Source: a virus
Taxonomy: Duplodnaviria; Heunggongvirae; Uroviricota; Caudoviricetes
Virus record (IMG/VR): IMGVR_UViG_2585427761_000006
Reading direction: 5' to 3' (one strand)
DNA length: 4,108 nt
Positions 1 to 4,091 of this stretch are shown here, piece after piece. Position numbers and translations under genes: made by a program. The first letter of the stretch is position 1; each line of letters starts with the position of its first letter. The notes under the pieces were generated by a model. The model did not search any database. It saw only the letters and a list, made by a program, of their open reading frames with translations, and was not told the DNA's origin.

Positions 1-2243
1 TCCTGCTTCTGCATCTCCGTCAGGGTTTTCAGTTCGCCCTGCGCAGTCTGGTATTTCAGCTTCGCCAGCTCTGTATTCTGCCCCGCCAGTGCCAGTTGCT
101 CTTTCTGCTGCTTCAGCAGCCGGGAAAAACTGTCTTCCGCTTTTTCCGTCTCTGATTTTCCACCCCGGGATTTGGGTTTATTCGCCTCGTTATTGCGCCA
201 GGCTTCCAGGGCATTACTGATATAACGTTGTCTCGCCTCCTGATACGGTTCACCCACAAAACCGAGGTCATCCGCCGCATACCCCAGTCGGACACGCTCT
301 TTTTCTTCCCCTTTCAGTCTGGACAGGGCCAGCTCACGCTCTGTTTTTGTCAGGGCACTCTGCTGTTTATCATCCAGAGTGGCCTGTGGCAGCCGTAACG
401 GCACATTCACCAGTCCCTGCCGCTGCTGAAGCAGTTCATTACCCAGCCCCAGCAGACGGTTGAATTCCGTATGCTGACCATTCATAACCAGCATGGACTG
501 GTACACCTTATTCTGCTCTGCCGCCTGCTGACGAATTAACGCCACACGACGGTCTTCCAGCCCGGCAAGCACATCCTGAATGGACTGCGCTTTTTCCTGC
601 ATCTGTGCCAGACGGGACTGCTCAACGGCAAGCTGCTCTGTTGCCTGAGCAAGCCCTTCCGTTACGGTCTTCACCGAGGTCAGATGGTTTATCATGAATC
701 CGTCACCGGTCGTCCAGCCCGGGTTCGCCAGAACATACTGATATCCTGCGATTTTTTCCTGCAGGGATTTCACCCGACTGGCCTGTTCATCAATCAGCCG
801 GTTCTGCTCTGTCAGCGCCGCCCGTGTTCGTCCTTCATTATCTGAGGCTTCAGGCAAAGACATTGACGGCGTTTTATGCGCGATTTCATCTATCGTCAGT
901 GCATACTGGCGCGCAGACTCCCTGGCCTGCTCCTGATTCTGGTACAGCGTGTACCATGCTGCAGCCCCCAGCATCACCAGTCCGGGTACGCCACCAACCA
1001 GCCCCAGCGCACCGCTCATCAGACGTGAGCCCACCGCCGTTGTACTGTTCAGCGCATTCTGGGCGGCGCTTCTGGCAGCAATATTTCTGTTCAGGCGTTC
1101 CTGTGTGGCCGCCAGACGGGCCTCTGCAGCAATCTGCATCTCCGTCCCGCGGGCTGCCGCCACGGCCTGCTGAGCACGGTACACGGCTGCCCTTGCCCGC
1201 GCCGTGGCAATCTGCGTTCCCCTGAACTGTGCTTCCGCCAGTGCAACTTCATTACGTGCAGCCGTCACAAGTCCTGCCGTGGCAGACATCGCTCCGGAGG
1301 CCATATTGCCAAAGTACCGGGCAACCCCGACGGCAACCAGCGCGCCCACGGCTGTTGCCACATTATCAATCTGTCCGGCAACACCGTTCAGCACGCCGGA
1401 GAGCGTTTTCGTCACCCCGCTGGCCTCATTCGCACCACCCACCCAGGCCATAAAGGCGTTTTCCACCTTTGTGATCCCGTCAGAGACCGTTTCCGGCATG
1501 GCCGCGTATTCATCACGCAATACCTCCAGCTGGCTGATTAACGCAGGAACGACTTTATCCGCCGTCAGTTTGCCGTCGTCCGCCATCGCCTTAAGGTCTT
1601 TACGGGCCACGCCCATACCCGCAGCCAGTGCACGTACGATCCGGTCTCCGCTTTCATTGACCGAATTAAATTCCTCACCGCGTAACACACCCTGTGCCAG
1701 CGCCTGGCTGAACTGGGTGATCACCGAGCCCGCCTCTGCCGTACTGGCACCGGAGATTTTCAGCCCCGTGGAAATGGCCTCCGTCACCTTCAGCACATCA
1801 TCAGCACTGTAACCATATTCACGCATTGAGGCTGCCGAGCGGGCAAACAGGGCCGCATTATCTGAAAATGCCGTGCCCGTCCGCTGGCTGATATCCATCA
1901 GCACTTTCTGTGATGACGAAAATTCATCGGATGACTGCGACGCCTGTTTCAGTCGGGCATTCACGGAACTCCATTCATCGGCCAGAGAAATCAGGTGTCC
2001 GGTGGCAAAGGCACCTGCAAATGCCCCCGCCGTTCCGGCAGCTGAAGCGCGGATTTCCGTCAACTGGCTGTTCAGCTCAGCCAGGGCGCGTCGCTGCTCC
2101 CGGGCGACTGCGGCAGCCTGACGCCCGCCATTCTGCAGGGTCCGGTAATATTCACTGCCCATACGGGAAGCCCGCTGGATCTCCGACTGGAATGACTGCG
2201 AATTTGCCGAAATTTTGATAATCAGTTCACGTAACGTCGCCAT
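1..2243 (-). CDS. Phage tail length tape measure protein (lambda gpH-like), N-terminal 747 codons; 3' end lies beyond window position 1
   Basis: ATG at 2243..2241 (minus) preceded by GGAG at 2255..2252 with an 8-nt spacer. Manual reverse-complement translation gives MATLRELIIKISANSQSFQSEIQRASRMGSEYYRTLQNGG... and stays open to the window edge. Frame confirmed independently at 1500..1559 (DKVVPALISQLEVLRDEYAA), 661..720 (NPGWTTGDGFMINHLTS) and 3..59 (KLKYQTAQGELKTLTEMQKQ). Ala/Gln/Glu-rich, coiled-coil-like composition with a hydrophobic Gly/Ala/Leu segment is typical of tape measure proteins. Position directly downstream of G/GT matches lambda gene order. Confidence 0.85.
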   Translation of the reverse strand, partial: MATLRELIIKISANSQSFQSEIQRASRMGSEYYRTLQNGGRQAAAVAREQRRALAELNSQLTEIRASAAGTAGAFAGAFATGHLISLADEWSSVNARLKQASQSSDEFSSSQKVLMDISQRTGTAFSDNAALFARSAASMREYGYSADDVLKVTEAISTGLKISGASTAEAGSVITQFSQALAQGVLRGEEFNSVNESGDRIVRALAAGMGVARKDLKAMADDGKLTADKVVPALISQLEVLRDEYAAMPETVSDGITKVENAFMAWVGGANEASGVTKTLSGVLNGVAGQIDNVATAVGALVAVGVARYFGNMASGAMSATAGLVTAARNEVALAEAQFRGTQIATARARAAVYRAQQAVAAARGTEMQIAAEARLAATQERLNRNIAARSAAQNALNSTTAVGSRLMSGALGLVGGVPGLVMLGAAAWYTLYQNQEQARESARQYALTIDEIAHKTPSMSLPEASDNEGRTRAALTEQNRLIDEQASRVKSLQEKIAGYQYVLANPGWTTGDGFMINHLTSVKTVTEGLAQATEQLAVEQSRLAQMQEKAQSIQDVLAGLEDRRVALIRQQAAEQNKVYQSMLVMNGQHTEFNRLLGLGNELLQQRQGLVNVPLRLPQATLDDKQQSALTKTERELALSRLKGEEKERVRLGYAADDLGFVGEPYQEARQRYISNALEAWRNNEANKPKSRGGKSETEKAEDSFSRLLKQQKEQLALAGQNTELAKLKYQTAQGELKTLTEMQKQ

Positions 2244-2259: not shown

Positions 2260-2281
2260 AAAAAAAACCGCCACAGCGGTT
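2260..2281 (-). terminator. Intrinsic-terminator-like hairpin plus U-tract between GT stop and tape measure start (minus-strand sense)
   Basis: Minus strand reads AACCGC-tgtg-GCGGTT (6-bp stem, 4-nt loop; plus coordinates 2281..2266) followed by a T-run (plus-strand A8 at 2260..2267). It sits between the GT stop (2292..2290) and the SD of the tape measure gene. The stem is short, so termination is probably partial. Confidence 0.4.
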
Positions 2282-2289
2282 CTCATCAT

Positions 2290-2909
2290 TCATGACAGTG
2301 CTGCAAAGCTCAGCGCGTCTTCCAGCGCCGCAAACGGATCCACCTCCGGCTTATCCTCATCCTCGCCCCAGCAGAGCATGGCGCCCTTCAGTGCAACATT
2401 CATCCCCTGTGCCCCAAAAACCGCTTTCACGATCTGTGCATTACGGATATCCCCGCGCTCATCACCCAGCGGGGATACCCTGTCGAACTCCATCCACATC
2501 ATCGCCTCGCTCGCACTCAGGCTGTGCCGCAGTTCGGATAAGGTGCGCCCCAGACGGAGCGCAAGTCGCATCAGAAAGCGAATTTCCGGGCGGGCTACTT
2601 TTTTCTGGCCGACTCTGCATCAGCGATCAGTTCCAGTGCCTGACGCAGCAACCGGGCATGTACCGGACCATAGACGGCCAGCACCTGCTCACGGTCGTCC
2701 GGAGCGAACACCCGCTGCAGATCAGTATCACACAGGACATCGCAGAACAGCGTCACATCCGCTTCCAGGTTACGGCGGGTTTTCGCCACCACCGACAGGG
2801 TATCGTCATCCTCTCCATCACCATTGAGCACTTCCTGCCACAGATACCAGGCCTCTGCCGAAGGCTCCCGCAGCACCACGCTGACATTACCCCATTCCGG
2901 CACCTTCAC
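2290..2909 (-). CDS. Tail assembly chaperone GT fusion (lambda G-T-like), made by programmed -1 ribosomal frameshift at 2598..2604; about 206 aa
   Basis: The 0-frame G ORF ends ...ADAESARKK-TAG with the heptamer A AAA AAG immediately before the stop. The -1 frame from that point is open (KK-VARPEIRFLMRLALRLGRTLSELRHS...ALS) to TGA at 2292..2290. Frame arithmetic: G codon high positions are 2 mod 3, T-frame positions are 0 mod 3, which is a -1 shift on the minus-strand mRNA. A G/GT frameshift between the major tail and tape measure genes is a conserved feature of long-tailed phages. Confidence 0.75.
2595..2909 (-). CDS. Tail assembly chaperone G (lambda gpG-like), 104 aa, GTG start
   Basis: ORF (M)KVPEWGNVSVVLREPSAEAWYLWQEVL...ADAESARKK. 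The N-terminal motif EWGNVSVVLREPSAEA resembles, from memory, lambda gpG (..EHNGVTVTLSELSALQ..). Acidic, short, located between major tail and tape measure genes. The start is uncertain: there is no in-frame ATG, GTG at 2909 is the first start after the in-frame stop at 2993..2991, and the SD is weak. Confidence 0.7.
   Translation of the reverse strand: MKVPEWGNVSVVLREPSAEAWYLWQEVLNGDGEDDDTLSVVAKTRRNLEADVTLFCDVLCDTDLQRVFAPDDREQVLAVYGPVHARLLRQALELIADAESARKK
2598..2604 (-). promoter_or_regulatory. Programmed -1 frameshift slippery heptamer A AAA AAG (X XXY YYZ) at the 3' end of G
   Basis: Minus-strand sequence GCC AGA AAA AAG TAG. It is the same heptamer as the E. coli dnaX frameshift site, and the 0-frame stop lies directly 3' of it. 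The -1 frame continues into the T domain. Confidence 0.7.
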
Positions 2910-2974
2910 CGTTTTATGACGAAACCCCGACAGTCTGGCCAGCGCCAGCGTTTTCAGATCTTTTGCAATAAGCC

Positions 2975-3222
2975 TTATCCGCCCGCACCACTAACCGTCA
3001 CGGTACACGCAACAGACGTAACACTCTGCGCTGTTCTGCAGAATCCGTCACCACGCAGGTATAATCCCCCTTATCACCTGACTGCGTATTGGCTTTACTG
3101 AAAGTGTCAGTAGTCTGCCCCTCAACCGGCTGACCATCCTTCTTCCAGGCGTATTTATAAGGCGGCGTTCCCCCGTTAACACTGACTGACATTGTCAGCA
3201 GCGCACCGGTATTCACGGTAAG
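2975..3222 (-). other. Ig-like domain of the major tail protein; its final beta-strand (2975..3034) is encoded in the -1 frame
   Basis: In-frame part (3222..3031): LTVNTGALLTMSVSVNGGTPPYKYAWKKDGQPVEGQTTDTFSKANTQSGDKGDYTCVVTDSAEQ. The frame with codon highs at 1 mod 3 from 3034 reads TAQSVTSVACTVTVSGAGG then TAA at 2977..2975. This is the canonical Ig G-strand (S-V-T-S...A-x-L/V-T-V) expected right after the YxC strand. Confidence 0.6.
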
Positions 3223-3690
3223 TGTCTTATCCAGATTTTTCACAAACGCCAGCGGTACCACAAAGGACACCGGTTTACCCTTCAGACGAAGTGAAAACGT
3301 TGCAGCCACCACGCCGTTGGTACCGGATGACCAGGTGTGCTGACGCACTTCCGCCAGGAACTTAAAGCCCTTACCGGACGGAAACAGCACCTTAAACGCA
3401 TACAACGCGTCATTGTCATAGGCATCACGCAGGGCGTTCTGGGCCTGATTCAGATAAAAATTACCCGACATGGAAATCTCAGACGACGCCCCCAGACCGT
3501 TGATGTTCTCCTGCTCTGTGGAGCAGAGCGTGGTCACATCAATATCCTGTTTCTGACCGGCGGTGAACTGGACTTCCTTGATGGTGCAGTCCAGGCGCAG
3601 ATATTCCGCCTTATCCATGGTTTCAGCAGTCGCCGGGGCAGATGAAATCATCACCTGCGTCAGCTGTGAACGTTCATACAAAGCAGACAT
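2998..3690 (-). CDS. Major tail (tube) protein with C-terminal Ig-like domain (lambda gpV position), 230 aa as encoded
   Basis: ATG at 3690..3688 with AGGAGG at 3700..3695 (4-nt spacer). Protein MSALYERSQLTQVMISSAPATAETMDKAEY... The C-terminal part TPPYKYAWKKDGQPVEGQTTDTFSKANTQSGDKGDYTCVVTDSA is a recognisable Ig-like module (W...DG...DxGxYTC). Position upstream of G/GT/tape measure fits. The ORF-track version starts 21 codons earlier at a GTG (3753) that crosses the hairpin and SD, which I reject. The C-terminal 15 residues (EQRRVLRLLRVP) look frameshifted; see findings. Confidence 0.85.
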   Translation of the reverse strand: MSALYERSQLTQVMISSAPATAETMDKAEYLRLDCTIKEVQFTAGQKQDIDVTTLCSTEQENINGLGASSEISMSGNFYLNQAQNALRDAYDNDALYAFKVLFPSGKGFKFLAEVRQHTWSSGTNGVVAATFSLRLKGKPVSFVVPLAFVKNLDKTLTVNTGALLTMSVSVNGGTPPYKYAWKKDGQPVEGQTTDTFSKANTQSGDKGDYTCVVTDSAEQRRVLRLLRVP

Positions 3691-4091
3691 TCTGCCTCCT
3701 GATAATAAAAAACCCGCACGCGGCGGGGTATGGTTCTGTAGAAAAAAGTACACCGTGACCTGAAACTCCAGGGTTGCACGGTAACAGCGGTTTTCCGGAA
3801 TATAGTCTGCATTTCACTGACGGATCCCGGGGCCAGCAGCATTATGGCTTCACGGGCGTCCTGACGTATCTGACGCGCCTGCGTCACAGTCCCGGCATAA
3901 ACGTCTATCTGCACCGACACTGAGGACTCCGCCTGCCCGCCCATCACGTCCGCAGACACCGATGAAATCAGGCTGAAAACCACCCACGGAAGCGCCACCG
4001 ACGGCCTGCCATCCAGCAGGGGGACCACATACGGGTACACCTGCCCGCCGGCAAGATGCGCCAGATGAGGATACAAATCCGCCTCCGTCAT
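3660..4091 (-). CDS. Putative tail terminator / tail completion protein (lambda gpU position); 3' end uncertain
   Basis: ATG at 4091..4089 with an in-frame stop 12 nt upstream. Protein MTEADLYPHLAHLAGGQVYPYVVPLLDGRPSVALPWVVFSLISSVSADVMGGQAESSVSVQIDVYAGTVTQARQIRQDAREAIMLL... has a beta-rich small-protein character and sits immediately upstream of the major tail gene. The last ~34 codons (..SFRSRCTFFYRTIPRRVRVFYYQEAECLLCMNVHS) run through the hairpin/U-tract and SD and overlap the major tail gene by 31 nt, and look non-native. Confidence 0.55.
   Translation of the reverse strand: MTEADLYPHLAHLAGGQVYPYVVPLLDGRPSVALPWVVFSLISSVSADVMGGQAESSVSVQIDVYAGTVTQARQIRQDAREAIMLLAPGSVSEMQTIFRKTAVTVQPWSFRSRCTFFYRTIPRRVRVFYYQEAECLLCMNVHS
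3695..3700 (-). promoter_or_regulatory. Shine-Dalgarno (AGGAGG) for the major tail protein gene
   Basis: Minus strand AGGAGGcagaATG. Perfect SD complement, 4-nt spacer. Confidence 0.6.
3707..3727 (-). terminator. Intrinsic-terminator-like hairpin plus U-tract directly upstream of the major tail gene SD (minus-strand sense)
   Basis: Minus strand reads CCCGC-cgcgt-GCGGG (5-bp all-GC stem; plus coordinates 3727..3713) followed by TTTTTT (plus-strand A6 at 3707..3712), then ATTATC, AGGAGG and ATG. The plus-strand sense lacks a T-tract after the stem, so it is orientation-specific. Confidence 0.45.

Follow-up and report, generated by a model that had tools for sequence, protein, structure and literature searches.

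In other mobile elements, terminators placed inside operons are described (PMC8955417, PMC11658703) as suppressing spurious and read-in transcription whilst being ignored by antiterminated polymerase. Q-loaded RNA polymerase is resistant to termination, with its RNA exit channel narrowed (PMC9388147, PMC6606751), and the moron (Juhala et al. 2000, cited by PMC4104026) is a unit of promoter, gene and terminator lying between late genes. The closest annotated junction is that of phage HK97, whose record (NC_002167.1) gives four places as “putative” terminators (Table 1), with 6692..6719 separating gp11, the tail terminator protein, from gp12, the major tail subunit, and 8398..8422 coming after the gp15 moron and immediately ahead of the tape-measure gene. 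Our literature search found nothing specific on terminators preceding major tail genes. In lambda, genes U and V are separated by only a few bases, and no such hairpin is known there.

The locus considered here lies in a window of 4,108 bp, the entire contig JOQE01000092.1 of draft assembly GCA_000713935.1, which carries tail-module genes of a lambdoid prophage that is HK97-like and of the Stx-phage type. Judged by its junction, its start-codon spacing and its homologous flanking genes, the hairpin T1 in front of the major tail gene of this window is orthologous to the HK97 putative terminator 6692..6719. The two share a core stem of CCCGC(C)/(G)GCGGG, a T-rich tail, and an equal distance to the Shine-Dalgarno sequence and ATG, however the HK97 element has a 6-bp GC core that A-U pairs lengthen to 9 bp, folds at −15.5 kcal/mol with the 4-nt loop AGAT, and is followed by an interrupted T-tract (TTTTCTTTTT), compared with a 5-bp stem, a 5-nt loop and T6 in the window (−8.1 kcal/mol), both terminators being predictions only. 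The A-U extension of the stem is present in BP-4795 as well as HK97, and is missing from T1 of the window. The wider arrangement resembles processively antiterminated operons, such as the lambda Q/pR′ late-promoter system and the antitermination systems of conjugative elements, in that a long operon holds several sense-strand intrinsic terminators and, in complete relatives, is preceded by an annotated antiterminator gene. As the counterpart of the HK97 annotation, and one of several such elements in late operons of this kind, T1 is essentially known and ordinary; what is added here is its conservation with covariation across Enterobacterales, and the bracket that it forms with a second hairpin, T2.

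The hairpin in the window

Read on the minus strand from 3727 to 3688, the window runs CCCGC-CGCGT-GCGGG, T6, ATTATC, AGGAGG, CAGA, ATG, with the 5′ arm of T1 at 3727..3723, the loop at 3722..3718 and the 3′ arm at 3717..3713. The original prediction, made from the letters of the window, was of a 5-bp all-GC stem with a 5-nt loop and T6, followed by a ribosome binding site and start codon; read on this strand, its coordinates and every detail are right, and T1 was also returned by our terminator scan. In the folding calculation that it proposed as a check, RNAfold gives −8.1 kcal/mol, with the hairpin making up 97% of the ensemble. With five G-C pairs and a loop of 5 nt, T1 is among the shorter and weaker of intrinsic terminators.

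Table 1. Coordinates of T1, its neighbouring genes and the elements compared with it.
Feature	Coordinates	Strand	Evidence or remarks
Window: gp17/DUF3168 tail completion (“tail terminator”) gene, HK97 gp11 homolog	3660..4091 as sequenced	-	Pfam; relatives
Window: terminator hairpin T1	3713..3727	-	sequence, terminator scan, RNAfold, covariance model match 3702..3734, 25 orthologous loci
Window: U-tract	3701..3712	-	T6 3712..3707 then ATTATC; adjoins Shine-Dalgarno sequence
Window: Shine-Dalgarno AGGAGG, major tail gene	3695..3700	-	4 nt (CAGA) ahead of ATG 3690..3688
Window: major tail (tube) protein gene, HK97 gp12 homolog	2998..3690	-	protein identity, Pfam
Window: tail assembly chaperone gene, G-like	2595..2969	-	Pfam Phage_TAC_1, Phage_tail_T (both chaperone genes)
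Window: tail assembly chaperone gene, T-like	2290..2571	-	as above
Window: terminator-like hairpin T2, AACCGC-TGTG-GCGGTT overlapping T8 run	2260..2281	-	sequence, covariance model
Window: tape-measure gene, 5′ part, leaves contig end	1..2243	-	Pfam TMP_3, Phage_HK97_TLTM
HK97: putative terminator after capsid gene			GenBank annotation
HK97: putative terminator	6692..6719		GenBank annotation
HK97: putative terminator after gp12			GenBank annotation
HK97: putative terminator	8398..8422		GenBank annotation
Sp9 (L006): element before capsid/protease gene, AACCGC-TGCG-GCGGTT, T-run, ATTTTC, AGGAGG	6117	+	covariance model
Sp9 (L006): T1	12377	+	covariance model
Sp9 (L006): T2	13829	+	covariance model
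Sp9 (L006): element before lom	21404	+	covariance model
Sp9 (L006): element after lom	22158	+	covariance model
Sp9 (L006): element after last tail-fibre-region gene	23805	+	covariance model

The genes of the window all lie on the minus strand, in the order gp17/DUF3168, major tail, G and T chaperones and the start of the tape measure, with T1 following the first of these and T2 preceding the last. The window DNA is 97–99% identical to the tail modules of Stx-converting and other E. coli O157 lambdoid phages and prophages, among them BP-4795, Sakai Sp9, and Stx1a, Stx2a and Stx2c phages, and the module is present in 1,245 of 5,426 complete E. coli genomes, at up to 8 copies per genome. The exact variant of the gp17/major-tail spacer found in the window is absent from these 5,426 genomes, the best match being 98.9%. 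The major tail protein is 66–75% identical to the proteins of HK97, Salmonella phage FSL SP-016 and phage PhiR49_2 (66% for HK97 gp12), and its assignment draws on weak Pfam tail-tube matches, an Ig domain, and the annotation of its relatives as major tail protein.

Called against BP-4795 and strain PA20, the window carries several lesions. The gp17 gene has a 1-nt deletion at ~3808 that causes a frameshift, its stop codon (TAA or TGA in relatives) is TAC at 3750..3748, and the upstream ORF as sequenced traverses T1 to end at 3660 inside the major tail gene. A further 1-nt deletion lies in the gp17/major-tail spacer, and another near ~3031 puts the final ~17 major tail codons out of frame, leaving a C-terminus unlike that of relatives, with the start codon of the G-like chaperone changed from ATG to ATA (2967..2969). 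Since the draft assembly offers only a short contig for a prophage repeat that occurs in many copies, the lesions may be artefacts, errors from a collapsed repeat, or the marks of a decaying prophage. Read-through of the upstream ORF in this contig, if real, would interfere with termination at T1. The intact gp17-like gene of relatives encodes 114 aa, corresponding to an ancestral extent of 4091..~3750 in the window, and in intact relatives T1 occupies an intergenic spacer of 58 nt and begins some 21 nt or more past the stop codon, so that a terminating ribosome would not block the hairpin.

Taken alone, T1 is weak evidence. Its folding z-score is only −1.4 against dinucleotide shuffles, and a loose terminator scan found 4 sites in the window compared with 3.3 ± 1.7 in shuffles, figures that agree with T1 being a chance inverted repeat beside a T-run, without function. 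Against this, a strict pattern (a perfect all-GC 5-bp stem, a loop of 3–8 and T6 immediately after), picked post hoc, was found in 0 of 4000 first-order Markov random windows searched on both strands. It is the comparative evidence that is strong and decisive.

Conservation and covariation at the junction

Among close IMG/VR relatives, the junction is readable in 77 of 80, with the hairpin and T6 almost invariant and indels abundant from the stop codon up to the hairpin. For distant loci, one genome per species was scanned with an alignment of four major tail proteins, yielding 20 loci from Symbiopectobacterium, Serratia, Phytobacter, Pectobacterium, Leclercia, Enterobacter, Kosakonia, Superficieibacter, Brenneria, Providencia and Salinicola; with the window, BP-4795, HK97, FSL SP-016 and PhiR49_2, these make up a set of 25 loci. 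A GC hairpin and T-run, ending 18–26 nt 5′ of the major tail start codon, is found in all 25, with the T-run directly 3′ of the hairpin in every case (at least 5 T among the 8 bases past the extended stem). The stems of the distant loci differ with pairing kept (GCCGCC/GGCGGC, CCCGGC/GCCGGG, ACCGCC/GGCGGT, AGCTGC/GCAGCT, CCACC/GGTGG), the loops are free to vary (CGCGT, AGAT, TCCG, GCT, CATAGA, TTCG, GGAA, TACG), and the flanking spacer is otherwise unalignable among the 25. The Shine-Dalgarno sequence is kept as (A)GGAG in most relatives, with a weaker TAGGAA in Providencia.

In alignment A5, built without gaps from nine sequences whose loops are 4 nt long, pairing holds in 96.3% of cells and the covariation is 0.685, compared with 0.19 ± 0.07 in shuffles (0/500) and at most 0.18 for slid partners, some of the “both sides changed” counts arising from a one-position shift of register (ACCCGC vs CCCGCC) and not from independent substitutions. 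Unambiguous compensations are seen in Leclercia, Kosakonia, Phytobacter and two Providencia stems. Two MAFFT alignments of the spacer (A3 and A4) were discarded because the variable loop lengths led to misplacement of the 5′ arm, and were replaced by A5 and a covariance model. A further hairpin that would enclose the start codon (GCAGA-AUG-UCUGC) was dropped as a candidate, being conserved in neither HK97 nor FSL SP-016.

The hairpin and T-run in front of the major tail gene are real and conserved, and from these comparisons we conclude that, at the gp17/major-tail junction, both hairpin and U-tract are under selection. With all 25 loci keeping a hairpin at one junction, and with covariation in its stem, a chance origin is barely credible, the comparative data having effectively refuted it already.

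Related elements along the late operon

T2 begins 9 nt past the stop codon of the T chaperone gene (2290) and lies 16 nt 5′ of the tape-measure ATG (2243), in the position of the HK97 putative terminator at 8398..8422. The segment from T1 to T2 holds the major tail gene and the G and T chaperone genes. The covariance model built from the nine-sequence seed, which behaves as a generic terminator model, matches T1 in every locus and T2, with varied stems, in nearly every related locus. In the 24.8-kb late region of Sp9 the model gives six sense-strand intergenic matches (Table 1), over an operon stretch of about 18 kb, with the capsid and major tail genes each preceded by a near-identical cassette of hairpin, T-run, ATT(A/T)TC and AGGAGG. 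On the Sakai chromosome (NC_002695.2, + strand) the U-tract of Sp9 T1 falls at about 1789257-1789264 and T2 at about 1790700-1790715, and a Term-seq dataset exists for this strain (GSE143631, cited in PMC7547250). The original prediction had called a terminator in front of the major tail gene unexpected. This framing is overstated, because the HK97 ortholog is annotated and such terminators are regular in the late operon, T2 being conserved and one of the six Sp9 elements preceding the capsid gene.

The junctions occupied by these hairpins also receive additional genes. In a prophage of Enterobacter intestinihominis (L097, 322..1500), a KilA-N gene at 843..1373 lies between the gp17 and major tail genes with a terminator-like hairpin on each side, and is a moron at the T1 junction in the classic terminator-bounded layout. 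Likewise, the gp15 moron of HK97 has the counterpart of T2 as its terminator, and lom in Sp9 is flanked by hairpins. In contrast to morons, the terminators of the window and of most relatives stand alone, with neither an additional gene nor a promoter-like site at the two junctions. The 58-nt spacer at T1 holds neither an ORF nor a promoter-like sequence, and a promoter scan of the window found nothing. At one IMG/VR contig end (L066, 1..~78), sequence other than gp17 adjoins the hairpin and matches a multicopy IS-like element that occurs >10,000 times across chromosomes and plasmids of E. coli. One of the listed matches coincides with an annotated “transposase” feature, and an insertion beside the hairpin seems likely.

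Antiterminators are annotated in the Q position of both Sp9 (ECs_1778) and HK97 (gp69), with the genes lying upstream of, and co-directional with, the lysis and structural genes. That the operon depends on Q is read from this annotation of relatives, the window contig containing no regulatory region.

Possible functions of T1

We favour the reading that T1 is a genuine Rho-independent terminator, one of a series inside a Q-antiterminated late operon, at a probability of roughly 0.6. The original prediction of a terminator stands in part: the structure is real and selected as a hairpin with a U-tract, and it is not special to the major tail gene. A U-tract is required for termination and not for a hairpin of mere stability, and its occurrence in every locus favours a terminator, as does the KilA-N gene between two hairpin copies, which fits a terminator-bounded moron architecture. 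During lytic growth, Q-modified polymerase, in whose narrowed exit channel no terminator hairpin would form, would read through all of these elements, so that T1 would cost the major tail gene nothing; stoichiometry would then be set by translation, from a perfect AGGAGG after a U/A-rich tract, and by mRNA decay. In the lysogen, or for polymerase not coming from the late promoter, each terminator would halt transcription and the tail genes would be insulated, with the spacer possibly doubling as a slot for extra moron genes bearing their own terminator. Termination activity, Q read-through and an insulating role are what we infer for T1. Because complete relatives carry an upstream Q-type antiterminator and a co-directional operon, antitermination together with insulation in the prophage state would be the most economical resolution of the stoichiometry paradox raised by the original prediction, in which a terminator stands before a gene whose product is needed in far higher copy number than that of its upstream neighbour.

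Whilst we prefer a terminator, T1 may act mainly after transcription, as a determinant of mRNA processing or stability and a translational enhancer raising the output of major tail protein, a proposal that we regard as the main rival and as less likely. The hairpin would block 3′ exonucleases at the end of the upstream head-tail segment or, alternatively, serve as a protective 5′ stem-loop of the major-tail/chaperone segment once RNase E had cut within the A/U-rich spacer, with the U/A-rich tract beside AGGAGG acting as an enhancer of the ribosomal-protein-S1 type. This would agree with the like cassettes ahead of both abundant-protein genes in Sp9 (capsid, 6117; major tail, 12377), with T1 and T2 bracketing exactly the most highly expressed tail genes, and with the tightly constrained distance of 18–26 nt between hairpin and start codon; moreover, a terminator rendered inert by Q in lytic growth might leave selection to act on another role, and intercistronic hairpins take part in selective RNA processing and stabilisation elsewhere (PMC4423207). 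However, the same type of element precedes the low-copy tape-measure gene and flanks lom, which does not fit a tuning of abundance, the tight spacing may simply be the minimum for a terminator and ribosome binding site in a compact spacer, and the U-tract, needless for a stability hairpin, is retained everywhere, although its conservation could also reflect a translational role since it adjoins the Shine-Dalgarno sequence. Rather unlikely, to our minds, is the more specific proposal that the T1/T2 bracket is a differential-expression device setting the stoichiometry of tube and chaperones post-transcriptionally across HK97-like siphophages, in which an endonuclease would cut the antiterminated late transcript and leave the bracketed segment as a sub-mRNA stabilised in its own right. 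T1 would then be the stem that protects its 5′ end, T2 would block exonucleases at its 3′ end, and the U-tract would enhance translation. Termination and post-transcriptional roles are not mutually exclusive, and functions of T1 in RNA stability or translation are possible as extras to termination. It is improbable that T1 is passive, a relic or boundary mark left by the exchange of modules or the insertion of a moron. As such it would once have been the terminator of an inserted gene, or would mark a recombination joint, and would be kept by linkage without a present role. The KilA-N moron with its hairpin on each side, the gp15 moron terminator at the HK97 equivalent of T2, and the unrelated IS-like sequence adjoining the hairpin in L066 are all consistent with such an origin, however a relic would decay, whereas hairpin and U-tract have here been kept from genus to genus, with compensatory changes, beside a spacer that has diverged beyond alignment.

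A very improbable reading makes T1 the terminator and Hfq-binding module of a prophage sRNA, either derived from the gp17 3′-UTR or of the EcOnc/HnrS kind. The EHEC prophages Sp9, Sp10 and Sp12 encode multicopy sRNAs of the late region, among them HnrS (EcOnc10/11/12), a multicopy 66-nt prophage sRNA with a GC hairpin and U-tract at its end (PMC13502914). The Rfam search of the window gave only sub-threshold, terminator-driven matches to isrK, isrD and Trp_leader, with the weak likeness to the Hfq-binding isrK (19.9 bits vs a gathering threshold of 50) and isrD (18.7 vs 37 bits) lying far under threshold, and an isrK-like match, also weak, at 2261..2328 in the T2 region. HnrS was located in Sp9 by 15-nt complementarity to the 3′ end of mazF, using what we take to be the K-12 mazF sequence. 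HnrS/EcOnc12 of Sp9 lies at ~2790..2845 of L006 on the minus strand, between the Rz and terminase genes, antisense to the late operon and with its own terminator, in agreement with where Table S2 of Tree et al. 2014 puts EcOnc12; that table has no Hfq peak at the Sp9 T1 junction. HnrS and T1 differ in locus, strand and sequence, HnrS being about 9.5 kb away on the opposite strand and missing from the window, in which we found no match to the mazF-complementary 15 nt and CUUCU seed; an identification of T1 with HnrS/EcOnc was rejected. The lack of a promoter-like site in the window also argues against an sRNA.

The significance of an antiterminated terminator at this junction is modest, and it leaves the current understanding of phage gene regulation unchanged. 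If these terminators work as proposed, they would account for the silence of long lambdoid late operons in lysogens in the face of read-in or spurious transcription, and would explain the insertion of morons such as lom and KilA-N at these spacers. In EHEC, with up to eight copies of the module per genome, terminator strength could affect leaky expression of prophage structural genes.

The comparative result also aids the annotation of major tail CDS starts. Major tail starts lying upstream of the hairpin in several database records are almost certainly mis-annotated, because the Shine-Dalgarno sequence and ATG after the hairpin are conserved. Records that place the start of the major tail CDS 5′ of the hairpin include BP-4795 RefSeq ORF64 (L001, 3792..4637) and PhiR49_2 (L005, 1488..2243), and the upstream-placed starts in both overlap the gp17 gene or the spacer. 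Just 3′ of the gp17 stop codon, T-runs vary in length, with T6 at 3741..3747 in the window and CTTTTTCTTTTTT(T)(T) in others, and this stretch is the most indel-prone among close relatives.
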